Shown here piece after piece: positions 636 to 30,863 of a stretch of DNA of 64,000 nucleotides (position 1 is its first letter; every line of letters begins with the position of its first letter). The DNA lies in contig CAYPRX010000073.1 in assembly GCA_964413265.1 (NCBI GenBank), positions 88,883-152,882 of the forward strand, written 5' to 3'. Position numbers and translations under genes: made by a program. The stretch is from an uncultured Brevinematales bacterium. Lineage in GTDB: Bacteria; Spirochaetota; Brevinematia; Brevinematales; JAOACQ01. A model generated the notes under the pieces. It was not told the origin of the DNA, made no database searches, and was given only the letters and a program-made list of their open reading frames with translations.

Positions 636-644
636 GATGAATTT

Positions 645-1289
645 ATGAATGTTTCAGAGATTGCACCTACAAAGACAAACCTGCTCGAGTATAAAGGGCA
701 GCTGGGATTTTCCATAGAAGGTCATGATCTGCTGGAGGAAAAACGGGAAATTCTTGTTATGCATCTTGTTGAGATTATTTCTAAGATAAAAGAAGTTAGG
801 GAAAGTCTCAATACACTCCTTGCTGAAAGCTTTGAAATACTTCAGACTGTAATCCTGGAAATAGGTGAACTTGAACTAAAGAACATTTCCGATACTCAAA
901 GAGAATTACCGGAAATTGAAATTCTTGAAAAAAGGGTTATGGGTGTAAATATTCCCTCAATAAAGTATAAAGAAGAGATCAGGGATGCATCAAGACCGGA
1001 CATTTCCTTTGCTTCCTCAACTATCAATTTTGATATTCTTTCAAAGAAAATCAAAGAGATGGCTTCTTTGATAACAGTTGTGGCACAGGTTGAGGATACC
1101 GCTTGGAGACTTGCTTACGAGATAAAAAAGACCCAGAGGCGGGTCAATGCGCTCGAAAATATTTTCATTCCGGACTTTAAAGAAATTATCAAATATATAC
1201 AGGATACACTTGAAGAGAGGGAGAGGGAAACATTTTTCCAGTTGAAAAGAATAAAAAGCAGTCAGGAGATCCAAGGCGATTCCGTTTAG
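645..1289 (+). CDS. atpD: V-type ATP synthase subunit D (central stalk)
   Basis: The N-terminus APTKTNLLEYKGQLGFSIEGHDLLEEKREILV and the C-terminal KKTQRRVNALENIFIP match the subunit D family. Its position directly after subunit B also fits. Confidence 0.85.
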   Translation: MNVSEIAPTKTNLLEYKGQLGFSIEGHDLLEEKREILVMHLVEIISKIKEVRESLNTLLAESFEILQTVILEIGELELKNISDTQRELPEIEILEKRVMGVNIPSIKYKEEIRDASRPDISFASSTINFDILSKKIKEMASLITVVAQVEDTAWRLAYEIKKTQRRVNALENIFIPDFKEIIKYIQDTLEERERETFFQLKRIKSSQEIQGDSV

Positions 1290-1307
1290 AAGGCGGGGAG
1301 GTTTATT

Positions 1308-1760
1308 ATGGGCAGAATCTATTATCCGTTAACTGGCTCTGCTGAGAACAGGAAGGCTACGAAGAGAGTTATCTCTCTTGTAAAATCGTATAACATGAAA
1401 TTAACCGCAATTTCTGTGGTAAACAATGAATTACTTTTAAAAATGGAAAGATACAGGATTTTCATAAATGAAGAAACATCCGTTATTAAAGATGAAATGA
1501 CCTGCGACGCCAAAAATTATCTCAACTATATAAAAAAAATCGGAATTGAGGGAGGAATCGAGGTTAATACAGTTTTGCTTGAAGGCGACCCCTATTGCTG
1601 TATAATGGATTTTATAAAACACGACAAGGAGGAATATAAAATCATATGTGTAGCAAAAAAATGCGGGGGTGAATTTTTAAAAGACATTTTTTCAACCGTT
1701 GAACGAAAAATTCTGCTGAATACTACTTTTGACACTATTGTCATTGGAGAATGTGTATGA
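1308..1760 (+). CDS. Universal stress protein (USP)-like alpha/beta domain protein
   Basis: It is 150 aa with a USP-like layout (IYYPLTGSAENRKATKRVISLVKSYNMKLTAISVV ... LLEGDPYCCIMDFIK ... KIICVAKKCGG ... ERKILLNTTFDTIVIG). The G-2x-G-9x-G(S/T) ATP motif is not obvious. A GGAGG ribosome-binding site lies upstream. Confidence 0.45.
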   Translation: MGRIYYPLTGSAENRKATKRVISLVKSYNMKLTAISVVNNELLLKMERYRIFINEETSVIKDEMTCDAKNYLNYIKKIGIEGGIEVNTVLLEGDPYCCIMDFIKHDKEEYKIICVAKKCGGEFLKDIFSTVERKILLNTTFDTIVIGECV

Positions 1761-2065
1761 AGGATTTAATATCAGCCATTTTAAGCGCCGAGGAAGAGCT
1801 GCAGGAGAAGGCTAAATCGACTAATGAGAAAGTTCAGGAAATAAACGGACAGGCAGATGCCAAGATTGATCAATTTATCAGGAATAGGGAGGAAGAACTG
1901 CTCCGGGAAAAAAATAAAAAGACAAACAGCCTTGAAGATGAAATAAGGGAATACGGCGAAAAGCTTCATAAAGACATTAACCGGGAGATGAAGGCCAAGG
2001 AAAAAAAACTGAATGCAAAAAGATCGGTCATTTACTCAAGAATTATAAATTCAATTATAAGCTGA
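1757..2065 (+). CDS. Small charged coiled-coil protein, possible V-ATPase peripheral-stalk (G/H/E-like) subunit
   Basis: It is about 100 aa, Lys/Glu-rich and heptad-like (AEEELQEKAKSTNEKVQEINGQADAKIDQFIRNREEELL). The ATG at 1757 overlaps the upstream stop as ATGA. The track start at 1751 is an alternative. The assignment rests on composition and operon position only. Confidence 0.35.
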   Translation: MKDLISAILSAEEELQEKAKSTNEKVQEINGQADAKIDQFIRNREEELLREKNKKTNSLEDEIREYGEKLHKDINREMKAKEKKLNAKRSVIYSRIINSIIS

Positions 2066-2082
2066 AGCAAAAGAGGAAGATC

Positions 2083-3087
2083 ATGTTCGGAGAAGAATAC
2101 ACCTCGGTTTATCCAAAGGTCAAAAACTGGGCTGCTTCATTAGTACTCTCCAAGGATAAGTGCTCCGAAATACTATCGATGAATATGCCTGAATATTTGC
2201 AGTTTTTAAAGGCCCTTTCAAAAAAAATTGATCTTAATACTGATGATAATGTACAGCTTGAAGGCCAGCTCAAACAGGAGGGTTTTTACTTCATTGAAAG
2301 TATAAGCCGTTATCTTTTGGGTTACACAAAGGTTTTTATACTCTACCTTGGAAAAATTCACGAAATCGAGAACTTGAAAATAATAACCAGATCACTTTTA
2401 AATAAAAGGCCTGTCAATTTCCTTTACAGAATTCACAGAACGAGCCGTATCCAGATGGAATTTATTAAAGATATAAAAACTCTTGATGAATTTCAGAATT
2501 TGCTTGGAGGTACTGAATATTACAGGCTTGCATCCGATGCAATACCAAGGATAAAGAATGAAAATACGACTTTTTATTTTGAAATGAACCTTGACAATTA
2601 CTATGCGAACAGTATTAAAAAACAGATCTCACGCCTGGGTCCTGATGAAAAGAAACAAATAAAAAACATATTTTTTTATTATCTTAATATCAGCCGGTTA
2701 TTATGGATATACAGGGCAAAGTTCAATTTTTCGATGTCCAATGAAGAGATTATTGCGATTGTACCTAATATTCCGGTAATTTTCAGCAAATCAGCCTATC
2801 ACTCGCTTCTGGATTCGGAGACAAAAGAAAATTTTATTGAGAAATTGAAAAATCTTGGTTTTTTAGAGGTGAGAGATCCAGATCATTTTAATCTTGAAAA
2901 GGAAATGTATTTCCAGCTTATGAAGAAGGGGAAATCCTGTCTTGTTGGAAATCCCTTCAGTCTGAGCGTGTTTCTTGGTTTTTTTATTCTGAATATTATT
3001 CATGTGAGAAACCTCATTACAGCCCTTGAAGCCAAAAAACTTGGCGTAGATGCTGCTAAAATTATGGAAATGCTGGTATATGATTAA
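2083..3087 (+). CDS. atpC: V-type ATP synthase subunit C (d / AC39 family)
   Basis: At 334 aa the size is right. The segment EIENLKIITRSLLNKRP and the C-terminal VRNLITALEAKKLGVDAAKIMEMLVY resemble the conserved AC39 repeats of bacterial subunit C. It sits between stalk genes and subunit I. Confidence 0.7.
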   Translation: MFGEEYTSVYPKVKNWAASLVLSKDKCSEILSMNMPEYLQFLKALSKKIDLNTDDNVQLEGQLKQEGFYFIESISRYLLGYTKVFILYLGKIHEIENLKIITRSLLNKRPVNFLYRIHRTSRIQMEFIKDIKTLDEFQNLLGGTEYYRLASDAIPRIKNENTTFYFEMNLDNYYANSIKKQISRLGPDEKKQIKNIFFYYLNISRLLWIYRAKFNFSMSNEEIIAIVPNIPVIFSKSAYHSLLDSETKENFIEKLKNLGFLEVRDPDHFNLEKEMYFQLMKKGKSCLVGNPFSLSVFLGFFILNIIHVRNLITALEAKKLGVDAAKIMEMLVYD

Positions 3088-3106
3088 TAAAACAGGGGAT
3101 TAACAG

Positions 3107-5062
3107 ATGTTTATCTCTCAAAGGATGAAGAAGATCGACCTTATTATCATGAAAAAATTTGCTGATGATGTGTCGAAAGAAATAGTAAAGTTCGGAAATT
3201 TTCAAACGATTGAAATATCCGGCGAAAAGGCAGAAGATCTTTTGCTGAAGAAAAGCGTTTCTGATGCGGAAATAGCGAGATTTTCAGACCTTGATAAGAG
3301 GGTAAGTTACCTTATTTCCACGTTTGAAAGCATCATGGAAAATATTGAAATGTGGGAAAGCGAGGAGATTACTGAAGCCGGAATGATAGATGCTGAGAGC
3401 CTTGAAAAGAATGTCAAGACCATAGAATCGGAAGTAAACTTGCATTACGGAAATATTGAAAGGCTCAGAAATGAGCAGAGAGAAAATAAAATCAGAATAA
3501 AAAAGGTAGATTATTTCTCTACCCAGGAAGTCGATTGGACAAGAAGTACCTGGATGACATTTTTTACTATGGGATTTGGCAGCGTTCCACTGGCTGGTTA
3601 TGTAGGATTTGAAAGTGCTATGGAAACACTGCCGACCGTCATTGAAAAAGTAGATACGATTGATGATACGGTAATAGTGTTTTACGTGGCACCTTCTTCG
3701 GTTAAAGAAAAGGTCTCACAGATTCTTAAAAGCGTTTATTTCAAGAATTATGGTATACCTGAAACAGCAGCAGAAGTGGATAAATCCTCACTTGTGCATC
3801 ATGCTTTCGAGTTAAGTTCAGCTTATGATGAGGAAATGTGGCAGGAAAAGCAATTTAAAAAAAAGATACTTGATTACAGACAGCTTTTGAAAACTCTGAA
3901 AAACAGTGCACGGTATTATATAGCCATGGAACGCCTGAAGGGGGAGATGGCATCTTCGGAAAAGGTTTGCATATTTTCAGGATGGGTTCCATCAAAAATT
4001 ACTCATAGATTTAAAAAAAAGATGGAACAATTGACTCAGAACAGGTGTGAAATTTTGGAAAGGAGCGCATCAAAAGCGTTGGCTGAAGAGGGTCTCATTG
4101 CGCCAACTAAATTATCCAACCCGTTCTTTATAAGACCATTTGAAATGCTTGTTTCTACTTTCGGCACTCCTAATTACAGGGAAATCGATCCAACCCCATT
4201 GCTTGCTGTGACTTTTGTACTTATGTACGGTGCAATGTTCGGGGATGTAGGACAGGGTTTAGCCCTCGTCCTGCTGGGTATTATTATATTTTTTATTAAA
4301 AAGTTCAAATCATTCAGGAATTTCGGTACTATATTTATTTATGTCGGAGTATCATCTGCCTTTTTTGGATTGATGTACGGAGCCGTATTTGGTTTTGAGA
4401 ATGTGATAAAAGCGATATGGATGAAGCCGATGGACCGTGTTATGGATATCCTCACACTCTCTATTATATATGGATCATTTGTTATCCTGTTAGCTCAAAT
4501 CCTCAATATTATTAATAGTATATTGGGGAAGGACTATCCCAGTTTTTTATTTTCAAGGAATGGGCTGGCCGGCTTCGGTTTCTATGGATCTTTAGTCTAT
4601 GTAGCTATCTGTTTAATAAGGGGAATTCATTACCAGGAATATATTTTTGTTTTCACCATAGTTTGTGCTCTGTTGATATCCCTCGAAAAATACCTTGAAA
4701 GATTATTGTTCAGCCATCATGTTAGCGGAGCTGAGGACGAAAAACCAACCGTTACGATGGCTGTTGTAGAAATATACGAATCTGTAATGGGTTTCCTCAG
4801 CAATACCATATCTTTCATCAGGGTCGGTGCTTTCGCCTTGAACCACATAGCACTCATGAGCGTAGTTTTTGTTTTGTCATATTCGTCCAAAAATCCTATA
4901 GTTCAATGGGTAGGACTCTTCATCGGCAATATCATCGTGATCGGCTTTGAGGGATTTATAGTTGGCATCCAGGTAATGAGGCTTGAATACTATGAATTCT
5001 TTACCAGGTTTTTCAGAGCTGACGGCAAGGCCTTCGAAGGGATCGGTGTTTATAAACCATAA
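3107..5062 (+). CDS. atpI: V-type ATP synthase subunit I (a subunit, membrane stator)
   Basis: It is 651 aa with a soluble coiled N-terminal half followed by multiple TM helices. Motifs: NPFFIRPFEMLVSTFGTPNYREIDPTPLLAVTFVLMYGAMFGDVGQG and the Arg-containing helix SFIRVGAFALNHIAL. Confidence 0.85.
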   Translation: MFISQRMKKIDLIIMKKFADDVSKEIVKFGNFQTIEISGEKAEDLLLKKSVSDAEIARFSDLDKRVSYLISTFESIMENIEMWESEEITEAGMIDAESLEKNVKTIESEVNLHYGNIERLRNEQRENKIRIKKVDYFSTQEVDWTRSTWMTFFTMGFGSVPLAGYVGFESAMETLPTVIEKVDTIDDTVIVFYVAPSSVKEKVSQILKSVYFKNYGIPETAAEVDKSSLVHHAFELSSAYDEEMWQEKQFKKKILDYRQLLKTLKNSARYYIAMERLKGEMASSEKVCIFSGWVPSKITHRFKKKMEQLTQNRCEILERSASKALAEEGLIAPTKLSNPFFIRPFEMLVSTFGTPNYREIDPTPLLAVTFVLMYGAMFGDVGQGLALVLLGIIIFFIKKFKSFRNFGTIFIYVGVSSAFFGLMYGAVFGFENVIKAIWMKPMDRVMDILTLSIIYGSFVILLAQILNIINSILGKDYPSFLFSRNGLAGFGFYGSLVYVAICLIRGIHYQEYIFVFTIVCALLISLEKYLERLLFSHHVSGAEDEKPTVTMAVVEIYESVMGFLSNTISFIRVGAFALNHIALMSVVFVLSYSSKNPIVQWVGLFIGNIIVIGFEGFIVGIQVMRLEYYEFFTRFFRADGKAFEGIGVYKP

Positions 5063-8587: not shown

Positions 8588-8611
8588 AAAAGGGTGGAAA
8601 GGAGGGGTAAA

Positions 8612-10366
8612 ATGTCTTTAAAGATAGAAGATCTTCAGGCTGTTCTTGATATCAACAGAAAGATCAACTCGATAGAAGATGTCCGCCTCATTCTCAATGA
8701 TATATCACACTACGCTGGAGTTCTGCTGAACGCTGAAGGGGCATCCATACTGCTTGTCGATCCTGATACAGGTAATCTCTTTTTTGAAGTAGCTTTCGGT
8801 GAAAACGCTGATATCCTCAGTAATGTCATTGTTCCAAAGGGAAAAGGTATCGCCGGATATGCGGCTCAAAGAAAGGAACATGTAATTGTCTACGATGCGG
8901 AAAATGATTACAGATTCTATAAAGAGGTGGATCAGAAGACAAACCTTAAAACAAAAAATCTGCTGGCTATGCCGCTAATACATAATGATAATTCCATAGG
9001 CGTTATAGAAGTTATAAATCCGGCCAGAAAAATTTTTACCGACGATGATGTTATTATTTTAAAGCAGTTTGCAGAACAGGCCGCCACCGCCATAGCTAAC
9101 GCACTTCTTTATAAGGCCGCGCAGACCAGGGCGAAGGAACTTGAATACCTCTACCAGATTTCGAATCTAACGAATCTCACATATGACAGGAAAGTCCTTT
9201 TTTCAAAAATAGTTGAGTTGCTGTCTAAAATATTTAATTCACACAGGGTTTCAATAATGTTCCTCAATGAGAAAACCGGTCATTTATATATTGAAAGCGC
9301 TGTAGGGATGCCTCAGGATGTTGTTGAAAAGATGGAGCACAGCCTGGAGATTGATAAAATTTCGAGTAGAGCAATAAAACAGGGTAAGACGATTTATTCA
9401 AATAATATTGAGAAAACAGGGTTTGGCAGGAATAAACGTTTAAGGTACAAAAATACAAGTTTCATCTGCACTCCTATCAAGATTAAAAATATTTGTTTGG
9501 GAGTTATTAACATTTCAGAGCCCAAAAAAGGGGCGCGGTATACTCCTGAAATGATCAAAACGCTAAGGACCATCGCAAACCAGGTTGGTTATACATATGA
9601 AAGCATGCTTAGTTATATGGAACAGCTTGAACATGAAAAGATAAAAAAAGAGATCGACATCATGAAGACGCTTCAGAATGCCCTCCTGATTAGCGATTTT
9701 ATCTCTTTTAAAAACATATCCGTGTTTGCTAAAATGCAGACTGCAGAGGTCGTCGGGGGAGATTTTTATGATATCTACAATCTGACACCTGCCAGAATTG
9801 GTTTTGTAATCGGCGATGTTTCGGGAAAGGGCCTGCCAGCATCTTTGTATATGGCCGTATCAAGAAGCGTAGTAAAAGCTTATGCTTTTCATACAAAAGA
9901 ACCAGATATGCTTCTGGAATATGCAAATGACATACTCTTCGAAGATTCAAGGGTAGGCATGTTCGTTACGATGTTTTACGGGAGTTTAGATCTGACAAGA
10001 AAGATTCTGGAATTTTCGAATGCTGGACATAATCTTCAGTATGTTTACAGGCCGGCAATGGGGATATTCTCCTCTCTTTCAAGCAAGGGAATCCCCCTTG
10101 GCATCACCAAGTCTGAAAATTATATATCTTCGTACTTCCAGCTTGAAGAGGGAGATATTATTTTCTGTTTTACAGACGGGATAATCGATGCCGTGAATGA
10201 TAAGGGGATAGATTTCGGGCTGGACAGACTAAAAAAGATTATAAGGGAAAATTCTTCTTTGAACGCTTCTGCAATAGTAAATATCATTTTCAGAGAGATT
10301 GATTTATGGTCAAAGGGTGCTCCGCAATGGGATGATATGACCATGCTTGTATTAAAAATAACTTAA
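8612..10366 (+). CDS. GAF-GAF-PP2C (SpoIIE/RsbU-type) serine phosphatase
   Basis: Two GAF-like segments are visible (GASILLVDPDTGNLFFEVAFG ... SIGVIEVINP; HRVSIMFLNEKTGHLYIESAVG ... CLGVINISEP). The C-terminal SpoIIE domain shows VGGDFYD, IGDVSGKGLPASLYM, FTDGIIDA and DDMTMLVLK. A GGAGG ribosome-binding site lies 6 nt before the ATG at 8612. Confidence 0.8.
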   Translation: MSLKIEDLQAVLDINRKINSIEDVRLILNDISHYAGVLLNAEGASILLVDPDTGNLFFEVAFGENADILSNVIVPKGKGIAGYAAQRKEHVIVYDAENDYRFYKEVDQKTNLKTKNLLAMPLIHNDNSIGVIEVINPARKIFTDDDVIILKQFAEQAATAIANALLYKAAQTRAKELEYLYQISNLTNLTYDRKVLFSKIVELLSKIFNSHRVSIMFLNEKTGHLYIESAVGMPQDVVEKMEHSLEIDKISSRAIKQGKTIYSNNIEKTGFGRNKRLRYKNTSFICTPIKIKNICLGVINISEPKKGARYTPEMIKTLRTIANQVGYTYESMLSYMEQLEHEKIKKEIDIMKTLQNALLISDFISFKNISVFAKMQTAEVVGGDFYDIYNLTPARIGFVIGDVSGKGLPASLYMAVSRSVVKAYAFHTKEPDMLLEYANDILFEDSRVGMFVTMFYGSLDLTRKILEFSNAGHNLQYVYRPAMGIFSSLSSKGIPLGITKSENYISSYFQLEEGDIIFCFTDGIIDAVNDKGIDFGLDRLKKIIRENSSLNASAIVNIIFREIDLWSKGAPQWDDMTMLVLKIT

Positions 10367-11110
10367 ATGCATGATATTCTGACCTATCCTGATTATTTCA
10401 GCAATGTTTTGACTGTCGGTACAACCGAAAGGGGTTTGAACTTCGGCCTGTATACTGCCAAAACATTACTGGAAGCCGAGAAAATTAAAATATTGATGGC
10501 TTCCATTGTCAAAGGACTTGGTTTTAGAGGACTTGTAACCTTAAAACAAATACATTCGGGTCTTGTCCATTTTATTGGTAACATCAATTACAAAGAATAT
10601 CTGAATAATTCTTTTATTGAAGGTGATGGTATTTTTACGGATTCAAAAGAGCTGCTTCTTGGTATACTCACAGCGGACTGCATTCCAGTTTTTTATACCA
10701 ATGATTCGGCCGATATAGCAGGCATTGTACATGCCGGATGGAAGGGTATTAAAAATAAGATCCACATAAATATTATAGATAGAATCAGAGAAAAACTGAA
10801 TATAAAACCTGAAAGTCTCCATATTCTTATAGGGCCGCATATAAGGAACTGCTGTTATGAAGTAAAGAAGGATTTGATAGAAGAACTTGGTACTATTAAT
10901 TTTGAAACAAGAAAAAGTTCTCTTTTTTTGGATCTTGAGGCTTGCCTTACTGAGGACTTGATTAAAAAAGGAGTAAAATCGGAAAATATTATAAAATACT
11001 TAAAATGCACCAAGTGCTCTGAATTACCGCATTTCTATTCATACCGCGGCGGAGATATGAGGGAAAGAATGCTCTCATTTATCGGCATCGGCAGACAGGC
11101 TATATTTTAA
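10367..11110 (+). CDS. pgeF: YfiH/PgeF family (DUF152) purine nucleoside phosphorylase / peptidoglycan editing factor
   Basis: Motifs LKQIHSGLVHFI, LTADCIPVFY, HAGWKG, CCYEV and YSYRG. It starts 1 nt after the upstream stop. Confidence 0.8.
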   Translation: MHDILTYPDYFSNVLTVGTTERGLNFGLYTAKTLLEAEKIKILMASIVKGLGFRGLVTLKQIHSGLVHFIGNINYKEYLNNSFIEGDGIFTDSKELLLGILTADCIPVFYTNDSADIAGIVHAGWKGIKNKIHINIIDRIREKLNIKPESLHILIGPHIRNCCYEVKKDLIEELGTINFETRKSSLFLDLEACLTEDLIKKGVKSENIIKYLKCTKCSELPHFYSYRGGDMRERMLSFIGIGRQAIF

Positions 11111-13175
11111 TATTGTAATCCTCCATTTTACTTCTGAGAGTATTCCTGTTGATACCAAGAAAATCAGAAGTTTTAACCTTGTTTCGATTGTTGAATATCA
11201 GTGATCGTGTAATCAGTTCCTTTTCAATATGCCCTATGATTCTCTCATAGAGTTTCCCATTGCAGGCCTGATTTTTAATAAATCCTTCAATCCATTTACT
11301 TATATGAATATCTGGCACCTCTTCTATATCCATCAAAAAAGAAGGAAGATTTCCTACTTCTATCATCTGTACACGGCAAAGAAGAACAGCCCTTTCAATT
11401 ACATTTTCAAGTTCCCTGATATTTCCAGGCCAGTTATAGGACTGGAGAAGTCTCAATGACTCCTGTGAAATTCCAAGAATGTTTTTATTATCTCTTGTCG
11501 AGTATTTTTTTATAAAATGGTTAGCAAGAAGAGGAATATCATCTTTTCTGTTCCTCAGGGGAGGAATCTGTATTTCGACAACGTGCAGACGGTAATAAAG
11601 GTCTTCCCTGAATTTTCCCTCTTTTATCAATTTATTGATATCCTTGTTGGAAGCAGAGATAATTCTTATATCTATTTTTACCTTGGATTCGCTGCCGAGA
11701 GGTTCAATTTCCCTTTCCTGTATTGCCCTTAGAAGTTTAGCCTGAAGATAAAACGGCATATCGCCTATTTCATCAAGGAATATCGTACCTCCGTTTGCAA
11801 GCAGGAATTTACCTTTTTTATCTGATACGGCTCCGGTAAAAGCACCCTTTTTGTAACCGAAAAGTTCAGACTCCAGGAGATTTTCAGGTATTGAAGCACA
11901 GTTTATGCTGATAAAGGGTGAGTTCTTTCTATTGCTGCCGACATGAAGTGCCTGGGCTACAAGCTCCTTGCCGGTACCGCTCTCACCGAGGATCATGATC
12001 GATGAACTGCTGTCGGAAACCGTTCTGATCAGCTCAAAAACCGCCATCATCTGCTTGCTTTTGCCGACGATATTATCTATGGCAAAATTCTTGAAGAGTT
12101 CTTTTTTAAGGCTGAGATTTTCGGCGATCAGATTTTCCTTATCTTGATATATCCTTTCCCATGATTTTACCTTATTAGCTATAATGTTAGCTACAAGTGT
12201 CATCGTGTCTTCCTCATCGCTTAGAATGCTTTCGTTTTCAAAGTATTTTTCAACAGCAAGGACACCGATAACTATTCCTTCTATTTTTATTGGAACCGCG
12301 ATAAAGGAGATCTGAACGTTTTTATCACGCTTTATCTGAAGCCTGTTCAAATATGATTCATCCTTGTTGATATCTTTGATTGAAACAGCTTTCCCGGTTT
12401 CTACAACTCTGCCGACAACCCCTTCACCGATCTTGTATATGCCCCGAGACATTTCTTCATCAGTAATATTGTAGGCTTTATATATTGATAGTTTGTTAGG
12501 TTCCTCTTTTTCAAAGAGGATGAGCATTCCCCTGTATATTCCCAAACTGTCGGCGAGTTTTTTCATCACTATCTCAAATGAATCAGATAGTTCGAAAATC
12601 TTTTCAATACTCTGAGATATATCGAGAAGAATGTCTTTAAATTTTATTTTACTCTCAAGCTGATGGTAGAGATTTGTCCTGATAAGTATCTGGGCGGCCT
12701 GATTTGAAATTGTTTGAAGGAACTCCATGTCGTCCTCGGTGAAAGCTCCGATTTTTGCACTGTCAACGTTGACGACACCGATGATTTTCCCCTGGACGGA
12801 TAAGGGGACTGCAAGTTCCGATTTTATATCTTTACGCACCGGAATATACACCGGGTCTATACTTACATCATTGACCAGCCTGGGTATTCCATCCTGAAAA
12901 ACTGTTCCTGTGAGACCTTCTCCTACTTCAATAGGGGTTTTCAGGACCATATCTTCATCAAGTCCTTTGATAACTTCATATCTGAGTTTCCTTGTTCCCG
13001 GGTCTTTGATCATTATAGAACCACTGTCTGCGCCGGTTATTGTTATGCATTTATCCAGCATTATTTTAAGAAGTTCCTGTGAATCAGAAGTTTCATTCAT
13101 AGCGATGGTAAGATACTGGATGAGCTTATGTCGTTTTATCTTTTCCTCAAGTTCTTTCGTATAATTATTGTCCAT
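11100..13175 (-). CDS. Sigma-54-dependent transcriptional activator (GAF-GAF-AAA+-Fis HTH)
   Basis: Two N-terminal GAF-like domains precede the AAA+ core, which has GESGTGKELVAQALH, the ESELFGY / GAFTGA (GAFTGA loop) motifs and an RLHVVEIQIPPLRNR segment. The C-terminal HTH reads DFLGINRNTLRSKMEDY. It is divergent from glnA. Confidence 0.9.
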   Translation of the reverse strand: MDNNYTKELEEKIKRHKLIQYLTIAMNETSDSQELLKIMLDKCITITGADSGSIMIKDPGTRKLRYEVIKGLDEDMVLKTPIEVGEGLTGTVFQDGIPRLVNDVSIDPVYIPVRKDIKSELAVPLSVQGKIIGVVNVDSAKIGAFTEDDMEFLQTISNQAAQILIRTNLYHQLESKIKFKDILLDISQSIEKIFELSDSFEIVMKKLADSLGIYRGMLILFEKEEPNKLSIYKAYNITDEEMSRGIYKIGEGVVGRVVETGKAVSIKDINKDESYLNRLQIKRDKNVQISFIAVPIKIEGIVIGVLAVEKYFENESILSDEEDTMTLVANIIANKVKSWERIYQDKENLIAENLSLKKELFKNFAIDNIVGKSKQMMAVFELIRTVSDSSSSIMILGESGTGKELVAQALHVGSNRKNSPFISINCASIPENLLESELFGYKKGAFTGAVSDKKGKFLLANGGTIFLDEIGDMPFYLQAKLLRAIQEREIEPLGSESKVKIDIRIISASNKDINKLIKEGKFREDLYYRLHVVEIQIPPLRNRKDDIPLLANHFIKKYSTRDNKNILGISQESLRLLQSYNWPGNIRELENVIERAVLLCRVQMIEVGNLPSFLMDIEEVPDIHISKWIEGFIKNQACNGKLYERIIGHIEKELITRSLIFNNRNKVKTSDFLGINRNTLRSKMEDYNIKI

Positions 13176-13344
13176 ATTCGAACCTCTTTATGGCTATTAT
13201 TTAACCATTATTATAAATAATGAGTAAATTATAAGCAAATATTTTCTTCTATTAAAAATTAATTTAATAAAATTTGTAATTTAAATTTAATCAATTATAA
13301 TAAAATATTATATAAAGTGCTGCAGTATCTTTCATTTATTATTT

Positions 13345-13360
13345 TGGAACAATAATTGCG
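13345..13360 (+). promoter_or_regulatory. Candidate sigma-54 (-24/-12) promoter of glnA
   Basis: TGGAAC-aataa-TTGCG. The GG at 13346-47 and the GC at 13358-59 have the canonical GG-N10-GC spacing of TGGCAC-N5-TTGC. The site lies about 40 nt upstream of the glnA ATG (GGAGG RBS at 13387) and next to a divergent sigma-54 activator gene. Confidence 0.6.
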
Positions 13361-13398: not shown

Positions 13399-14817
13399 AT
13401 GGATGCTAAAGGAGTATTGGACCTGATAAAAAAAGAAGGAATAGTTCAGGTCGATTTACGTTTTATGGACTTCCCAGGTATGTGGCAGCACTGTACTTTT
13501 CCTGTTTCAGAATTCAAGGATGAGAGTGCCTTTGAAGAGGGATTAGGCTTTGATGGTTCTTCAATACGTGGCTGGCAGGGAATAAATGAATCAGACATGC
13601 TTTTAATAGCTGATCCGAGTACTGCCGTTGTCGATCCATTTACAAAGTATCCCACATTGCTCATGATAGCGGATATTAGGGACCCCATTACTCATCAGGA
13701 ATACCCGAAAGACCCGAGGCATATTGCTAAAAAAGCGGTTAATTATTTAAAGAGCACAGGCATAGGCGATACTGTTTATTTTGGCCCGGAGCTTGAGTTT
13801 TTCATCTTCGATGATATAAGGTATGGCCAGAACACCAGGGAAGGTTATTATTATATTGATTCAGACGAGGGTGTCTGGAACACCGGAAGGGAAGAGGAAG
13901 GTGGAAACAAGGGATATAAGATCAGGCATAAAGAGGGATATTTCCCTGTTCCCCCTTCTGATTCATTAATGGACGTACGAAGTGAAATGGTTCAGATGTT
14001 TGAGAAGTTCGGGATACGCATTGAAGCCCATCACCATGAAGTCTCTACAGCCGGACAGGCAGAGATTGATATGCGTTTTGTTGATCTTGTAAAAATGGCG
14101 GATCAGGTTTTAATGTATAAATATATAACTAAGAGTGTAGCGGTCAAAAACGGAAAGACTGTTACTTTTATGCCTAAGCCTCTCTTTGGAGATAACGGAA
14201 GCGGAATGCACTGTCATCAGAGTATCTGGAAGGGTAATAAAAATGTCTTCGCCGGCAACAAATATGCCGGATTATCTCAGGAAGGTCTCTGGTATACTGG
14301 AGGTATTTTAAAGCATGCAAACTCTCTTGTTGCAATTACCTGTCCGACAATGAATTCTTACAAGCGTCTTGTTCCAGGATTTGAAGCACCTATAAATCTG
14401 GCTTATTCGGCAAGGAACAGAAGCGCTGCAGTAAGGATACCGATGTATTCATCAAACCCTGCAACGAAGAGGCTTGAATTCAGAACCCCAGATTCAAGCT
14501 GCAACCCTTACCTTGCATTTTCAGCAATGCTTCTTGCCGGACTCGACGGTATCCAGAATAAGATTGATCCGGGCGAACCGATAGACAAGAATATTTATGA
14601 TCTGCCTCCTGAAGAGCAGTCTAAAGTCGGCAGCGTTCCCGGATCCCTTGAAGAGGCTTTAGAAAATCTTAAAAAAGATCATGAATACCTCCTGAAGGGA
14701 GATGTATTCACGAAAGATGTGCTCGATACCTGGATAGAGTACAAGATTACTAATGAAGTTAGGGCCATTCAGCAGAGGCCTCATCCGTACGAGTTTTTCC
14801 TTTACTACGATATTTAA
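13399..14817 (+). CDS. glnA: Glutamine synthetase, type I
   Basis: It is 472 aa with classic GSI blocks: [68 protein letters not shown] and [12 protein letters not shown]. The adenylylation-loop tyrosine context NIYDLPPEE is present. Confidence 0.95.
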
Positions 14818-14906: not shown

Positions 14907-15395
14907 TTGAAAAAAAAATATGTTATTATATCAATTATTCTCTCTGCAAATACTGTGTTTTTTGAGTGCTCAAGCCAGACCAGGTTTTCATATATTAGAA
15001 ACAGGCTTAACGGTCAGAATATTCAAGAGCAATCATATGAACAACTCCTGATCGGTCCCCTCAGATATAATATATCTGCCTTAAATAATTCTTTTATTAT
15101 CGCTCAAAACTACAATCATACATTTCTGGGAAAAATCTGCAATCCCTATGATATTGATTCAATTTTTAATGAAGAAGGGGATTACGGCAGTTCTGCCTCT
15201 TTTTTATCCATATGGAATGAATTGGGATATTTCGGGAATAAGTACGGCATTTATTCACCCTTTAATAATTTAACGTCTACACCTCCGATGATCATCAAGG
15301 ATGGGTCTATAATCGGTTATTTAACAGTAAATAAATCGATTATCGGCGGAATCAGTCCTTATAGCCTGATAATTTACATAGATGATTTTCATTGA
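14907..15395 (+). CDS. Hypothetical secreted/lipoprotein-like protein with internal SI[FW]NE-G-[YF]G repeat
   Basis: It uses a TTG start and has an N-terminal signal-like segment MKKKYVIISIILSANTVFFEC. I recognise no family. A repeated motif is visible (DSIFNEEGDYGSSAS / SIWNELGYFGNKYG). Confidence 0.4.
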   Translation: MKKKYVIISIILSANTVFFECSSQTRFSYIRNRLNGQNIQEQSYEQLLIGPLRYNISALNNSFIIAQNYNHTFLGKICNPYDIDSIFNEEGDYGSSASFLSIWNELGYFGNKYGIYSPFNNLTSTPPMIIKDGSIIGYLTVNKSIIGGISPYSLIIYIDDFH

Positions 15396-18300
15396 TATCC
15401 GGAGATATCTGAATTTATTTTTCCAATTTCATCGTTAAAAACGGCCATGACTTCATTTCGGTATCTTTCAATCAAATTTTTCAGGAGAGAAGGGGATTTC
15501 TCGTTGATAATGCCTATAAAATAACTTCTTCTTACAAGGTAGTTGAACTCCATAGATGTTTCAGGATAAACATTAAGGTCCTTGGCGTTTCCCTTCGCCA
15601 TACGGAGAATATTTATCAAATTCCTGAAAAAAAGATAACTTTCCTTTAATCTTCTCAAGGTTTCATCCTTGATTATTCCTGTCTTTAAAAGAGCTTCGAT
15701 TCCTGCCACAGTGGATTCGCACATCAGGGAAGGTTCATTCTTTCCATAAGCTATCTGGAGGGTCTGAACCAGATATTCTATATCTACAAGACAGCCCTTT
15801 GAATATTTAATATTGGTGAGGTTGGGGTTTCTCACATTTGAAGCGATCTGTTTTTCTCTGAGCGTAAGAAGAGCTGATATGTCAGGTTTTCCTCCACCGT
15901 ATACAAACCGGTCACGGCATGAAATTATATCCTTTATCAGTAGAGAAGGAGAATTCCCCCCGCAGATCGGCCTTAGTTTTACAAGGGCCTGTTTTTCAAA
16001 ATAATAGGCTTTGCCTTCCCTGAAATATTCAAGAAAACTTGATTTAGACACAGGCAGCATAGAAGACTTGCCGTACGGTCTGAGATTAAGATCGATCTCA
16101 AAAATCCCCTCGCTTTTTGAGTGAACAACCCTGAGAAAGGTCTGGATAAATTTTTCAAAATATGAAGCGATATTTTTATTGTCGCTGCTGAGATTTGAAT
16201 CGTCATAAACGAACATTATTTCTATATCCGATGCGTAGCCGAGTTCCCTTCCTCCTAGTTTTCCAAGACCGAATACTTCCCATGGGGGGGCCTTTTTTAC
16301 ATGAAGTAAGCTTTGCATCTCTTTATCTATCTTTTGAAATGCAAGTTCAATAACGGATTCAGCCAGGTCTGTCAGTTCAAGTGAGAATTCCATCATTCCG
16401 GTCTTTTTAAGAATCTGTCTGAGATCAATCCTGAACATTTCAGCATCTTTCCATTCATTGAGAAGGGTACTGAAGGCATTTAGATTTTCCTTTTCGGGAG
16501 CTCTTTTTTTCAGATAGTTGTTCGAAAATCTGTCTTTTAGCTGATCAGCTGAAAAACACAGTTCGAGTGTAGGGTCGTTAAGTATCGGCAGTAGATCGGT
16601 GAATTGAAATCTTATCAAGTCCTCCCAGAAATAATCACCTATGCCGAAAACAGCAGCGAGTTTTTCCTGTACTTCCTTCTGGCCTAAAAGGGGAAGTTCT
16701 TTTTTACCCCCGCTTTCAAGGATCTTCATCAGGAGTTCATCGAAATGACGCAGAGCCTTGTTAGGATCAACAGCATTCTGAAGAAATGCAGAGTACTGTT
16801 TGATAAGGGCTACTGCAATTTTTAGATTTTCAATTTTTACTGCTTCCAGTATTTTTTTCCCGTCTCTTGTCAATATGAAAATCCTGTCAAAAACACTTTC
16901 ATCGACAGTGTCGATTTCAATTTTGAATATATAATAATCATTAAGGGCAAGAACATTAGTAAAAGTGTAAAGAAATGCGAAACTGTCTCTGGAACATATA
17001 TTTAAGATAGTATACTGGCTGCTGGATTCGTTATCCACATCGATATCGACGGGGGAGACGGAAGGGGCATCCCCGTATTGGAATCCTGAAATCATGACAA
17101 GTATCTTATTGTTGAGAAATTCCTCGGATTCCCTGATACGGTTATTTTCCAGCAGATTAAGTATGTAAGTCAGTTCATTTTTGAAAGTTTTCCAATCGGG
17201 GCCTGTAATACTGCCTTCCAGCCTGGAGACGATCAGAGTACATACTATTTTTCTTCTGTTAATGAGTACACCGGATTTATCAGGTGGAGAATAGGGATAT
17301 ATACGCTTTTCCTTTCTCCTGTAAAAGGCATCGGGGCCTCCTTTTGGCGCCGGGGAATAGTTACTGTATGTAAACGATTCGCCGCTGATAATCTTCAAAT
17401 AATTGGAAGAGATCAGTCCTGCTATCTTGGAAAACTCATAATAATAATCGAAAGCCACTATGGTAAGTTTCCATTTTCCCTGGCCTATTTCCGAGGTTTC
17501 CAGCTCGACAGGGTTTTCAAGATCCAGTTTAGATATCATTTCAAGATGTGAATAGATGTCATTTTCCGTGAAGCGAAGGAAATACTCGCTGTCCATTCTG
17601 AGAAAATGATCATTCAGAAGGTTTTTATCGCTATCGGGGTGAATTTTTAGAAGGTTGTCCTTCAATTCAAGGTACTGAATCGTTTCATCGAAAAGTGATG
17701 TGAATATCTCCCTCACATCCGACATTATTTTCAAAACTTTGTTTTTAAAAAAAATGCCGTAATTGCCGGAGCTTCTATCGAACCCCTCTATCTTCCATGA
17801 AGAGAAAAGGTTTTCGATATCCTCTTCGTTTTCCGGTAATGAATATTCCGGTGTATTGTTTTTTAACTGGATTATGTTTTCGATTTTTCTTAGTGTTATA
17901 TAGCCGTTATTGAGTGTTGCATATTCTTCATGTGTTATTATATGAAAAGTATTGAGCGCTGTCAGAGCCGCCAGAGAATTTGAAGTTCTGATCTCCGGAT
18001 AGCGGATCCCATGGATCAGCTGAAGAAACTGAATGATAAATTCTATATCTCTTATCCCCCCGGGAGAGTGCTTTATATCAGAAATGAGGTTTTTGCGTCT
18101 GATATTTATTTCGATTTCGTTCTTGATTCTCTTTATATCATAAACGATCTTCTGGGGCTCATGATGGCGGTAAATAATATTGTCAAGCTGAATGGAAAAT
18201 TCTTCATAAAGATCGGGATTTCCCCAAACAAGTCGTTTCTTTATCATAGCCTGGTGTTCCCATTTTCGTCCCCTTTTTCCGTAATACTCAATGGCGTTTT

Positions 18301-18937
18301 GAACCCCCATTACAAGAGGGCCGTCATTGCCCTCGGGGCGGAGTCTCATATCTATGCGGTATAAAAAGCCTTCACTGGATGAGGAACTTATGAAATTAAG
18401 GAGTGCTTTTAGGAAAGTATCAATATTGTGAGCCGTTATTTCATCAGAAAGGCTTTCATCTTTTCCGAGAAATATAAGATCTATGTCAGAACTGAAATTG
18501 AGTTCACCGCCTCCTAATTTGCCCATTCCTATTATCAGAAGATTGCTTTTAAGTATTTCATAGGTTAAGCCGTGTCTGTTATCGCTGGAACTGAAAAGGC
18601 TCTTGATTGAATAATCTATGCAGAAATCTGCAAGGTCGGAAATTTCCAATAGAGTTTCAGGAATGGTGTTTACATGCAGGAAATCCCTTAATGCAATTAG
18701 ACCGGTCTCCCTGTTTTTTATAATTCTGATTTGCAGAAAAAGATTTGATCTGTCAGTCGAGTCAGGATGAAAAGGATACTTGCCTTTATAGGAAATTCTT
18801 AATATGTGGCTTTTCCCCTTCCAATTGCTTATTATCTCTTCCATTTCAGCCCTTGTGCGTTTGTCTTTAACTATGAGTGTACTTAGATAAGGGCTGGAAA
18901 GAGCCAGTTCTTTGATGATTTCTTCTTGATTTGACAT
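15389..18937 (-). CDS. glnE: Bifunctional glutamine synthetase adenylyltransferase / adenylyl-removing enzyme, enlarged form
   Basis: Two GlnE-type nucleotidyltransferase cores are present: GMGKLGGGELNFSSDIDLIFL ... YRIDMRLRPEG, and GLGKLGGRELGYASDIEIMFVY ... IDLNLRPYG. It is 1182 aa, compared with about 946 aa in E. coli. Confidence 0.85.
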   Translation of the reverse strand: MSNQEEIIKELALSSPYLSTLIVKDKRTRAEMEEIISNWKGKSHILRISYKGKYPFHPDSTDRSNLFLQIRIIKNRETGLIALRDFLHVNTIPETLLEISDLADFCIDYSIKSLFSSSDNRHGLTYEILKSNLLIIGMGKLGGGELNFSSDIDLIFLGKDESLSDEITAHNIDTFLKALLNFISSSSSEGFLYRIDMRLRPEGNDGPLVMGVQNAIEYYGKRGRKWEHQAMIKKRLVWGNPDLYEEFSIQLDNIIYRHHEPQKIVYDIKRIKNEIEINIRRKNLISDIKHSPGGIRDIEFIIQFLQLIHGIRYPEIRTSNSLAALTALNTFHIITHEEYATLNNGYITLRKIENIIQLKNNTPEYSLPENEEDIENLFSSWKIEGFDRSSGNYGIFFKNKVLKIMSDVREIFTSLFDETIQYLELKDNLLKIHPDSDKNLLNDHFLRMDSEYFLRFTENDIYSHLEMISKLDLENPVELETSEIGQGKWKLTIVAFDYYYEFSKIAGLISSNYLKIISGESFTYSNYSPAPKGGPDAFYRRKEKRIYPYSPPDKSGVLINRRKIVCTLIVSRLEGSITGPDWKTFKNELTYILNLLENNRIRESEEFLNNKILVMISGFQYGDAPSVSPVDIDVDNESSSQYTILNICSRDSFAFLYTFTNVLALNDYYIFKIEIDTVDESVFDRIFILTRDGKKILEAVKIENLKIAVALIKQYSAFLQNAVDPNKALRHFDELLMKILESGGKKELPLLGQKEVQEKLAAVFGIGDYFWEDLIRFQFTDLLPILNDPTLELCFSADQLKDRFSNNYLKKRAPEKENLNAFSTLLNEWKDAEMFRIDLRQILKKTGMMEFSLELTDLAESVIELAFQKIDKEMQSLLHVKKAPPWEVFGLGKLGGRELGYASDIEIMFVYDDSNLSSDNKNIASYFEKFIQTFLRVVHSKSEGIFEIDLNLRPYGKSSMLPVSKSSFLEYFREGKAYYFEKQALVKLRPICGGNSPSLLIKDIISCRDRFVYGGGKPDISALLTLREKQIASNVRNPNLTNIKYSKGCLVDIEYLVQTLQIAYGKNEPSLMCESTVAGIEALLKTGIIKDETLRRLKESYLFFRNLINILRMAKGNAKDLNVYPETSMEFNYLVRRSYFIGIINEKSPSLLKNLIERYRNEVMAVFNDEIGKINSDISGYQ

Positions 18938-19085: not shown

Positions 19086-20180
19086 ATGACAGTTGTTTAT
19101 GCTCCTAAAAGCCCATATGGGGAAAAAGATATTTCAGGCTGCGGTATTATCGGTTTTATCAACAGGGATGGCAAGAAATCCACAGGCATTGAAGCGATAA
19201 AAGGTATAGAACATTTGAAGGAAAGAGGCAACAGCCTGGGCGGCGGATTTGCAGTTTACGGCCTTTACGATACATATAAGGACTATTATGCTCTGCATGT
19301 TATGTATGATGACATTGCATCTATGAAAAACGGTAAAGAATATATACAAAAAAATTTTGATGTTGTTTACGAAGACCAGATCCCCACAAGAAAAAATAAA
19401 ACAATCATCAACCCCCCTCTGTTTTACAGGTATTTTTGCAGGGTTTCGGATGCTCAGCTCGTCAATGTCAAAGAGGACGATTATGTCGTTTCAAAGGTTC
19501 TCTTTATTAATAAGAATATTGACGGGGTTTTTATCGTTTCGAGTGGAAAGAATATGGGAGCATTCAAGGGAGTCGGAGAGGCCCATGAAATCGGTGATTT
19601 CTTCAGGCTTGACGAATACCGGGCTCACACCTGGATTGCACACAGCAGATTTCCCACAAATACCCCCGGCTGGTGGGGAGGAGCACATCCATTCACAATT
19701 CTTGATTATTCAGTAGTTCATAACGGGGAGATATCTTCTTACGGCATTAACAGGAGATACCTTGAGAGTTTCGGGTACGAATGTACTATGCGTACTGACA
19801 CTGAAGTTGTTGCTTACGCAGTTGACCTGTTAAGAAGGAAGCATAATCTTTCCTGGGATAATATTGCAAAGGTTTTTGCAGCTCCTTTCTGGAAAGATAT
19901 TGATGCGATGGATGAAAAATCAAAATCTCTGTGCAGAGATATCAGGACAGTTTATGGAAGTCTTTTACTTAATGGCCCCTTTGCTTTTGTAATAGGCTTT
20001 GGCGGGGGATTTATGGCCCTTTCCGACAGGGTAAAACTGAGGCCGCTTGTAGCAGCGCAGAGCGGCAAGACCCTTTATGTTTCAAGTGAGGAGGGCGCCA
20101 TCAGGTGTATAGAAACGAATCTTAATAACATCTGGCACCCAAAAGCCGGAGAGCCTGTATTCGGGTATCTTGAAAATTGA
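19086..20180 (+). CDS. Class-II (Ntn) glutamine amidotransferase, glutamate-synthase domain-1-like, stand-alone
   Basis: The catalytic Cys context is SGCGIIGF, after an 18-aa leader. HSRFPTNTPGWWGGAHPF and VHNGEISSYGINRR match the GltS amidotransferase domain. No FMN or GXGXG domain gene is adjacent. Confidence 0.7.
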   Translation: MTVVYAPKSPYGEKDISGCGIIGFINRDGKKSTGIEAIKGIEHLKERGNSLGGGFAVYGLYDTYKDYYALHVMYDDIASMKNGKEYIQKNFDVVYEDQIPTRKNKTIINPPLFYRYFCRVSDAQLVNVKEDDYVVSKVLFINKNIDGVFIVSSGKNMGAFKGVGEAHEIGDFFRLDEYRAHTWIAHSRFPTNTPGWWGGAHPFTILDYSVVHNGEISSYGINRRYLESFGYECTMRTDTEVVAYAVDLLRRKHNLSWDNIAKVFAAPFWKDIDAMDEKSKSLCRDIRTVYGSLLLNGPFAFVIGFGGGFMALSDRVKLRPLVAAQSGKTLYVSSEEGAIRCIETNLNNIWHPKAGEPVFGYLEN

Positions 20181-30008: not shown

Positions 30009-30863
30009 ATGGGTAGCAAGGGACATGTTGGTTTAATATCGTTATTTTTGTTTCTGTCATTTGTTATAATATGTAAAACAAGTCTATTTTCCTTCAACAT
30101 AGGCGGAGGAAGGCAGGCTGCTGTTAATCTACAGACCCTGGTAGTATCTGATTTCGGGAATGATAGTGACCAGTCAAATAATATCAAATGGAATGCTAAA
30201 TTCTCAAGGTTTGCGAAACCTATAGATCCCAATCAGGAGAACAGTCCTGCGGACCCTAAAGCCTGTGGTGTAACATATGTTGAAGCGAAACCCCTCGGTC
30301 TTCCGCAGTATATTGATGCTCGAGAGAAATGGTCTCTTGGGATTAAAGCACAATTTACTAGAAAAGGCTATAACTGGATTGAAGTCTACCCCGTTAAAGG
30401 CAGTGCCGGAAGCGAGACTGCAAAACAGACAGTAACAATTGCAAGCAATCAGACTAACATTTCTCCAGGCCAGCCCTCAGTTTCAGAGGGTGGGAATGTG
30501 ATCAGTCCTATATCGCTGCCCGGCCAGATAAAGAGCATGGATATGTGGGTTTGGGGTGGAAATTATCATTATTGGATGGAGTTTTACCTGGTTGATTATA
30601 AAGGCTATTTAAACAGGCTTACAGCGGGGGATATAGATTTTGTCGGATGGAAAAATGTTGCGCTCAAAATACCAGATTATGTTCCTCAGGCAGAAATGCA
30701 TGTACCGTTCCTGAAATCACTGAGCCTGCAAATGATTAAACTCTGGTCCTATCCCACCGAAAGAGTTGATCAGTTTTACTGCTATTTTAACTATCTCCAG
30801 GTACAGACAGATGTTTATGTTGAGCGTTTCAACGGTGATGATCTGGCCAATAAAAGATGGTAA
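30009..30863 (+). CDS. flaA: Flagellar filament outer-layer (sheath) protein FlaA, paralogue 1
   Basis: A signal peptide is present. The blocks TLVVSDF, LGIKAQFTRKGYNWIEVYP, IKSMDMWVWGGNYHYWMEFYLVDYKGY...FVGWKNVALKIP and CYFNYLQV align by eye with the treponemal FlaA blocks (LGVRVLFP..., LKSIAVNTYGMNYPHGLYVMMRD...FDSWKELVW). Confidence 0.8.
   Translation: MGSKGHVGLISLFLFLSFVIICKTSLFSFNIGGGRQAAVNLQTLVVSDFGNDSDQSNNIKWNAKFSRFAKPIDPNQENSPADPKACGVTYVEAKPLGLPQYIDAREKWSLGIKAQFTRKGYNWIEVYPVKGSAGSETAKQTVTIASNQTNISPGQPSVSEGGNVISPISLPGQIKSMDMWVWGGNYHYWMEFYLVDYKGYLNRLTAGDIDFVGWKNVALKIPDYVPQAEMHVPFLKSLSLQMIKLWSYPTERVDQFYCYFNYLQVQTDVYVERFNGDDLANKRW

Follow-up and report, generated by a model that had tools for sequence, protein, structure and literature searches.

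A Brevinematales GlnE with a GlnD-type ACT pair next to its adenylyltransferase half, a candidate cis-acting effector sensor

The adenylylation cascade of glutamine synthetase (GS) is a classic model of signal transduction. In the E. coli adenylylating and de-adenylylating enzyme, GlnE, a linker lies between the N-terminal de-adenylylating domain and the central and C-terminal adenylylating part (PMC12409994). Here, we describe a GlnE of an uncultured Brevinematales bacterium (Spirochaetota) in which the linker region is replaced by a homologue of the C-terminal module of the uridylyltransferase GlnD. The gene lies in a stretch of 64,000 nucleotides (positions 88,883 to 152,882 of contig CAYPRX010000073.1, assembly GCA_964413265.1), which is referred to below as the window.

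The inputs of GlnE vary among lineages and are still being worked out, according to a recent mechanistic preprint (bioRxiv 10.64898/2026.09.02.748916). There, the canonical GlnE of E. coli and H. seropedicae, which has no ACT domains, is a direct sensor of glutamine by its central and C-terminal part, the S. coelicolor enzyme is independent of PII and GlnD, and the R. rubrum enzyme ignores glutamine. No ACT-bearing GlnE architecture is seen in the passages of the preprint that were searched. GlnD has a single glutamine site (PMC4285133). Its response to glutamine requires its ACT domains (PMC4285133; Zhang 2010 as cited in PMC11190351), and glnD is ubiquitous in Proteobacteria and Actinobacteria only (PMC4285133). 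In the Chlamydomonas alpha-amylase AMA2, a GlnD-like ACT domain fused at the N-terminus is needed for activation by glutamine (PMC11190351). A full-text literature search found no paper that joins GlnE with "ACT domain(s)". The original prediction, which was made from the sequence of the window, had described a GlnE with built-in ACT domains as an architecture not known to be characterised, and no description of it was found in the literature searched.

The glnE open reading frame (ORF) and its parts, numbered in amino acids (aa) of the protein, are as follows.

15389..18937, minus strand: glnE ORF, 1182 aa plus stop codon, predicted GlnE with both adenylyltransferase and adenylyl-removing functions towards GS and an ACT pair between its halves (ORF list; Pfam, NCBIfam and PDB matches)

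17672..18937, minus strand: N-terminal half, aa 1-422, homologue of the E. coli adenylyl-removing (AR) domain, with a nucleotidyltransferase (NT) motif at aa 137 (alignment to E. coli GlnE 25-442; PDB 1v4a)

17531..17662, minus strand: helical lead-in, aa 426-469 (...HFLRMDSEYFLRFTENDIYSHLEMISKL), homologue of the GlnD segment between the HD domain and ACT1 (four helices with a predicted local distance difference test score, pLDDT, above 90; hhalign to E. coli GlnD 655-700; TIGR01693 match starting at model position 616)

17087..17509, minus strand: ACT1, aa 477-617, consisting of strand-helix-strand (KLTIVAFDYYYEFSKIAGLISSNYLKIISGESFTY), a basic disordered loop of about 40 aa, then a strand and helices (AlphaFold2; aligned to E. 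coli GlnD ACT1)

16781..17047, minus strand: ACT2, aa 631-719 (PVDIDVDNESSSQYTILNICSRDSFAFLYTFTNVLALNDYYIFKIEIDTVDESVFDRIFILTRDGKKI...) (sub-threshold Pfam ACT_ACR9_3rd match; PRK05092; AlphaFold2)

15392..16780, minus strand: C-terminal half, aa 720-1182, homologue of the E. coli central region and adenylyltransferase (AT) domain, with the NT motif GLGKLGGRELGYASDIEIMF at aa 890 (alignment; motif)

The insert lies where E. coli GlnE has its Q1 linker. A MAFFT alignment of the window GlnE with 45 relatives and the E. coli enzyme matches aa 1-422 to E. coli residues 25-442 and aa 691-1173 to residues 491-946. The 268 residues between them (aa 423-690) are opposite 48 E. coli residues (443-490), which leaves about 220 extra. 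The original prediction is congruent with this alignment. It had put the protein at about 240 aa longer than the E. coli enzyme (1182 vs. 946 aa, a difference of 236), had described both GlnE-type NT cores as intact (the motifs are present at aa 137 and 890) and had placed the extra material between the halves at about aa 440-705 (16825-17620), close to the aligned aa 423-690.

Outside the insert, the protein has the organisation of canonical GlnE. Pfam finds two matches each to GlnE and GlnD_UR_UTase (E 1.9e-77 and 1.8e-30), so that there are two tandem GlnE-type NT units (PF03710), each followed by PF08335. These two homologous NT halves, their collinearity, the AR motif and a neighbouring GS gene with the target tyrosine are shared with canonical GlnE (EC 2.7.7.42/2.7.7.89), the enzyme of E. 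coli, other Proteobacteria and Actinobacteria. The PDB matches of the ORF are 1v4a, the N-terminal domain of E. coli GlnE (E 7.9e-50), and 3k7d (E 1.7e-37). All 20 residues of the AR motif at aa 137 are the same as in the E. coli AR-domain motif, and this motif is fully conserved across the ACT-type family. The glycines, the lysine and the S-D-x-[DE] of the catalytic motifs are 97-100% conserved in both halves among 38 relatives.

The differences from canonical GlnE are the GlnD-type lead-in and two ACT domains in place of the Q1-linker region, D-I-E in place of D-L-D in the AT motif, and the presence of circularly permuted and stand-alone AT proteins among the relatives. The AT-half motif reads S-D-I-E at aa 903-906. 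The glutamate is invariant in 38 ACT-type GlnE, while eight of eight canonical GlnE examined have S-D-L-D; S-D-I-E is a marker of the ACT-type subfamily. The best NCBIfam model for the ORF is the GlnE equivalog PRK11072 (E 1.1e-123), with 414.2 bits against a cut-off of 487. The other GlnE models are also below their cut-offs (349 vs. 625 bits for PRK14109 and 314 vs. 724 for PRK14108). The shortfall against the equivalog cut-off fits a divergent AT half plus an insert, and the predicted product is a GlnE variant rather than an equivalog.

When the insert alone is compared with NCBIfam, the only matches are to GlnD models. The TIGR01693 match (E 4e-11) runs from position 617 to 842 of this 850-position model. 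PRK05092, the GlnD model for Alphaproteobacteria, is matched with E 5e-12, ACT2 covering its positions 840-919. The cut-offs for full-length GlnD are not reached (65.3 vs. 519 bits for TIGR01693; 65.4 vs. 959 bits for PRK05092), the TIGR01693 match of the ORF is confined to model positions 616-842, and no HD-domain family is among the Pfam matches of the ORF at E≤1. Judged by these matches, the GlnE ORF is not a GlnD, and the C-terminal module alone is common to both proteins.

In an hhalign comparison, with a 28-sequence alignment of homologous inserts as input, the insert family is collinear with residues 655-870 of the 890 residues of E. coli GlnD over 210 columns (probability 90.8%, E 1.2e-6). 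The match spans the lead-in helices, ACT1 and ACT2. It places DSEYFLRFTENDIYSH of the window protein opposite ANYFVRHSPNQLAWH of GlnD, and the resemblance proposed in the original prediction, between the DSEYFLRF...H segment and the pre-ACT segment of GlnD, is borne out by this pairing. Over E. coli GlnD residues ~655-890, the two proteins share the post-HD helices with a YF(L/V)R...H lead-in, both ACT domains in the same order, and an xIDNxxS...T(I/V)L...D motif that starts ahead of ACT2 and extends into it. Within GlnD, the module stands at the C-terminus, behind the catalytic domains, whereas in the window protein it is upstream of the half that it appears to serve. The window GlnE also differs from GlnD in having neither an HD domain nor a GlnD-type uridylyltransferase (UTase), and its output would be direct AMPylation of GS rather than modification of PII.

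The ACT domains belong to a subfamily that also includes plant proteins. PF24931 (ACT_ACR9_3rd), the plant ACR type of GlnD-like ACT, matches 25 of the 28 family inserts (best E 1.1e-9), and the ACT family PF01842 matches 12 of them (best E 1.9e-9). In a word-indexed search with the family profile, the sole other matches are plant ACR proteins (ACR4, E 1.7e-18), which consist of GlnD-like ACT repeats. The insert by phmmer against PDB sequences has a chance match only (Utp8, E 0.87). ACT_ACR9_3rd, as the best Pfam match, groups the module with plant ACR proteins (ACR11/ACR4) and AMA2, and AMA2 is a precedent for an ACT domain of this kind that is fused to an enzyme and gives activation by glutamine. 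These proteins differ from the window GlnE in that they are eukaryotic plastid proteins, have an unrelated catalytic partner or none, and are without the GlnD-type helical lead-in.

The AlphaFold2 model of the insert family, run on the 28-sequence alignment, has a pLDDT of 86.3 and a predicted template modelling score (pTM) of 0.85. It contains four lead-in helices followed by two beta-alpha-beta-beta-alpha units in tandem. In model numbering, with E for strand and H for helix, ACT1 consists of E53-61, E64-72, H77-87, E90-99, E139-148, H158-173 and H177-193, and ACT2 of E219-226, H231-241, E245-254, E257-265 and H275-295. The two ACT-like units that had been read from the letters of the insert both coincide with strand-helix-strand elements of this confident model. 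In a Foldseek search against the PDB, the significant and high-probability matches all have an ACT or ACT-like fold. They comprise the ACT-like domains at the N-terminus of M. smegmatis L-GDH180 (E 1e-5), the regulatory domain of IlvA and ACT-like domains of GL3/R. The SerB2 ACT pair is among the weaker matches. No GlnD chain is among the Foldseek PDB matches of the insert model. The original prediction had named the lack of any ACT or GlnD-like match and of a ferredoxin-like fold as evidence that would count against it; instead, the insert has matches to GlnD models and, by AlphaFold2 and Foldseek, an ACT fold. From homology and predicted structure, the insert is a GlnD-type ACT pair with its lead-in.

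The module is kept from spirochaete metagenome-assembled genomes (MAGs) to proteins of Planctomycetes and Omnitrophica, at identities down to 19%. Six ACT-core positions are invariant or nearly so (D73, G83, G95, F231, L239 and D260 in insert alignment numbering).

ACT1 contains a basic loop of about 40 residues (FYRRKEKRIYPYSPPDKSG...) between its strands 2 and 3, at aa ~524-562 (~17252-17368, minus strand; model residues 100-138). Block means of pLDDT are low at model residues ~101-140. The loop is rich in arginine and lysine in distant clades as well, while its sequence is not conserved, and the hhalign comparison gives it no counterpart in E. coli GlnD.

ACT-type GlnE is a sizeable, widespread family in several phyla with three domain orders and is not unique to this genome. 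A full-length search finds about 40 clusters of 1150-1270 aa with the same insert, including spirochaete MAGs, an Omnitrophica bacterium and a Fuerstiella (Planctomycetes) MAG, as well as canonical GlnE of 933-1061 aa without it. The closest relatives are Spirochaetota/Brevinematales MAGs, with 46-74% insert identity. The survey of related genomes used a 10-sequence spirochaete alignment and so covers the close clade only. When 1.84 billion cluster representatives (50% clustering) are searched exhaustively by HMMER with the insert profile, 5795 match at E≤1e-3; of these, 2570 reach E≤1e-10 and 318 reach E≤1e-30. The best 150 representatives, sorted by BLAST with the AR, insert and AT parts of the window protein, fall into the following classes.

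AR-insert-AT, 43 of 150: the order found in the window

insert-AT-AR, 21 of 150: circular permutation

insert-AT, 55 of 150: about 20 of these are 707-784 aa long, start with Met and end 4-44 residues past the AT half (complete-looking)

insert only or AR-insert, 31 of 150: irregular fragments

In every class, the ACT pair is directly N-terminal of the AT half, and the insert ends 1-2 residues before it. The permuted proteins, in which the ACT pair is followed by the AT half and then the AR half, are 1250-1275 aa long (P0038 at locus L019, P0171, P0183, P0187, P0200, P0215 and P0230). We know of no earlier description of a circularly permuted GlnE. Among the stand-alone proteins, P0155 (784 aa; locus L022, 326-2680) is a complete internal gene with a single GlnE unit, two genes upstream of a 445-aa GS gene. 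Such stand-alone ACT-ACT-AT proteins imply that GS may be adenylylated without a fused de-adenylylating domain. Together, the permuted and stand-alone enzymes are a natural experiment on how modular the cascade is. The relatives are labelled "hypothetical" or "DUF294 nucleotidyltransferase-like" by NCBI, or are called plain GlnE. With such labels, and with scores below the GlnE equivalog cut-off, current annotation misses ACT-type GlnE.

The two halves of the window protein do not have the same affinities. The AT half has a median of 264 bits and 37% identity against ACT-linked AT halves, and is much less similar to canonical ones (median 120 bits, 28%). The AR half has no such preference, with 162 bits against ACT-linked and 190 against canonical sequences. 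By these scores, the AT half of ACT-type proteins is a divergent subfamily of its own that co-varies with the module. Because the ACT pair always abuts the AT half and the AT half co-varies with it, ACT-ACT-AT appears to be one evolutionary, and presumably functional, unit. This unit, which the original prediction had not described, also counts against reading the N-terminal 720 aa as a GlnD without its HD domain. Assignment of the ACT pair to the N-terminal half, in a GlnD-like order, was also considered and rejected: every AR-ACT protein is an irregular fragment, in contrast to the complete ACT-AT and ACT-AT-AR proteins.

The presumed substrate of the enzyme is encoded nearby.

13399..14817, plus strand: glnA, type I glutamine synthetase (TIGR00653, 673 bits against a cut-off of 429)

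The gene is 572 bp from the 3' end of glnE. Its product has the same residue as E. coli GlnA in 263 of 472 alignment columns and keeps the adenylylation tyrosine, with NIYDLPPEE aligned to NLYDLPPEE at E. coli Tyr398. A glnA gene is also near the ACT-type glnE in relatives L001, L003, L018 and L022. Two relatives keep a gene block made up of a glutamine amidotransferase, glnE, glnA and the NifA-like GAF-GAF-sigma54 activator. Neither glnB/glnK nor glnD had been noticed in the window from its letters, and a tblastn search with E. coli GlnK and GlnD likewise finds none in the 64 kb. Around the ACT-type glnE of 15 related loci, the +/-10 kb searched by tblastn also lack PII and GlnD genes, which at this scope is suggestive only.

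These observations bear on whether the protein modifies GS at all. It might instead nucleotidylylate a different protein, for example PII, as a GlnD-like enzyme whose ACT pair reflects a GlnD ancestry of the N-terminal half (NT, PF08335, ACT and ACT without HD). The N-terminal 720 aa do have the domain order of GlnD minus the HD domain, the ORF scores 414 bits against the GlnE equivalog cut-off of 487, and NCBI names one relative only "DUF294 nucleotidyltransferase-like". Nevertheless, the GlnE models match far better than the GlnD models (E 1e-123 vs. 1e-18, the latter from the insert), the AR motif is that of E. coli GlnE, and a glnA with the adenylylation tyrosine is a conserved neighbour. 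The ACT pair also goes with the AT half and not with the N-terminal half, and the searched window and loci contain no PII gene. We regard a target other than GS as very improbable.

With GS as the target, it is somewhat probable that the ACT pair is a cis-acting sensor of an amino-acid effector, most likely glutamine, that gates GS adenylylation by the AT half. By analogy with GlnD, the tandem ACT pair would bind a small amino-acid effector, most probably L-glutamine. Binding would allosterically favour the adjacent AT site, so that GS would be AMPylated on its conserved tyrosine and switched off, and the occupied ACT pair may also restrain the AR site. At low glutamine, the balance would return to de-adenylylation. 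The ACT pair would then report nitrogen status in cis, a task that in enterobacteria falls to GlnD and PII/PII-UMP in trans. The observed basis of this model is the homology, fold, position and conservation of the module across the family and its constant linkage to the AT half. The ligand, the direction of its effect and an independence from PII, and with it the bypass of the PII/GlnD relay proposed in the original prediction, are inferred.

Several observations weigh against a cis-acting glutamine sensor. The ligand assignment is a guess by homology, and for GlnD-type ACT domains no residue-level signature of glutamine binding is established, the mutagenesis of AMA2 being inconclusive. The Pfam match of the window ACT2 to PF24931 (aa 632-706, E 1e-3) has 19.6 bits against a cut-off of 27. 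In the ACT2 beta1-alpha1 loop, alanine replaces glycine in this spirochaete clade (DSFAF, vs. DTxGF elsewhere), and the ACT1 loop reads DYYYEF here and DYPGEL in other clades. The searches for PII and GlnD covered only the window and the +/-10 kb loci. Finally, canonical GlnE, as described in the preprint cited above, senses glutamine without an ACT domain, and the ACT pair may carry another signal.

The ACT1 loop was considered separately as a sign of a dead sensor, given its lost glycine, and rejected as a strong argument. E. coli GlnD ACT1 also has tyrosine at that position, with DRPYLF paired with DYYYEF in the hhalign comparison, and DYYYEF is therefore not evidence of decay.

Some of these points would also suit a module that has lost ligand binding and acts as a structural or oligomerisation spacer, which parts the AR and AT halves or dimerises while PII still regulates the enzyme. 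The sub-threshold Pfam match, the replaced glycine of the ACT2 loop, the 40-residue disordered basic loop that breaks up ACT1, the position of the insert at the Q1 linker and the reach of the PII searches, which were of the window and nearby loci only, are all compatible with a spacer. However, in different phyla and at only 19-30% identity, the module keeps both its collinearity with GlnD and a set of invariant core residues. It also stays on the AT half through circular permutation and in stand-alone ACT-AT proteins, where there is no second half to space. A spacer is quite unlikely.

A further alternative concerns the ligand. The ACT pair could sense glutamate, another amino acid, 2-oxoglutarate or a nucleotide, while the conserved central/AT region still responds to glutamine, as it does in the canonical enzyme. 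ACT domains bind many small molecules, and the structural neighbours of this pair bind isoleucine (IlvA regulatory domain) or serine (SerB2). The ACT loops of this clade differ from those of GlnD, and a second glutamine site would be redundant if the C-terminal part already responds to glutamine, as it does in canonical GlnE. Against this, the nearest sequence relatives of the module are GlnD and plant ACR proteins, both tied to glutamine and to signalling around GS and glutamate synthase (GOGAT), and the divergent, ACT-linked AT half need not keep the canonical glutamine site. We consider another effector unlikely.

The cis-acting glutamine sensor would join a set of GlnE proteins with lineage-specific inputs. 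The S. coelicolor, H. seropedicae and R. rubrum enzymes, as described in the preprint, resemble it in this respect and in that glutamine can drive the AT activity without unmodified PII. They differ in being ~930-1000 aa long without ACT domains, with the glutamine site in the central/C-terminal part. Neither direct glutamine sensing nor PII independence is a new principle, because canonical and S. coelicolor GlnE already show them. What is new is the ACT domain as the would-be sensing part and its hard-wiring to the AT half. The protein is a domain-shuffling variant inside a well-understood system, and the functional role of the ACT pair is putative. ACT-type GlnE is a simple and testable system in which to study the sensing of nitrogen status beyond Proteobacteria and Actinobacteria, and it may give a compact glutamine-responsive AMPylation switch for the engineering of nitrogen assimilation.

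A broader interpretation is offered tentatively, and we hold it to be doubtful as a whole. ACT-ACT-AT could be an ancient module that works on its own as a "one-component" system: it would read glutamine and AMPylate GS with no need of PII or GlnD, and it would have been joined to the AR half in either order or left alone. Carrier lineages, these spirochaetes among them, would then run GS control wholly by sensor-effector fusions, possibly including glnA transcription through the NifA-like GAF activator, and the module would mark an evolutionary link between GlnD and GlnE.

At the locus of a distant carrier (L018, 6547-13666), the gene order is glnA, amtB and ACT-type glnE. No glnK follows amtB at this locus, unlike the usual amtB-glnK pairing; this is suggestive only. 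In the 64-kb window, a tblastn search with E. coli AmtB finds no amtB gene.

The NifA-like activator gene of the window (11100-13175, minus strand) encodes two GAF domains, a sigma-54 AAA+ domain and a helix-turn-helix, and its TIGR01817 score of 471 bits is below the cut-off of 529. It is divergent from glnA and adjoins glnA in relatives too. A sigma-54-like -24/-12 element, TGGAAC-N5-TTGCG, was read by eye at 13344-13359 on the plus strand, about 40 nt upstream of the glnA ATG; a scan with the strict sigma-54 consensus finds nothing near glnA. The arrangement suggests that glnA transcription is also under a sensor-fused one-component regulator rather than NtrBC. An Rfam scan of the window gives no family at threshold and no glutamine riboswitch.

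Two genes from the GAF activator, a GAF-GAF-SpoIIE protein (PP2C-type phosphatase) is encoded at 8594-10366 on the plus strand, and it has the same position in L001 and L003. On the other side, divergent from glnE, a 364-aa glutamine-using enzyme (19086-20180, plus strand) contains a class-II glutamine amidotransferase domain only and is a conserved neighbour in relatives. Its matches to the N-terminal domains of GlmS, PurF and AsnB are weak and none is above cut-off. Farther away, genes for V/A-type ATPase subunits (3-5062, plus strand) and the flagellar outer-layer protein FlaA (30009-30863, plus strand) are consistent with the spirochaete origin of the window.

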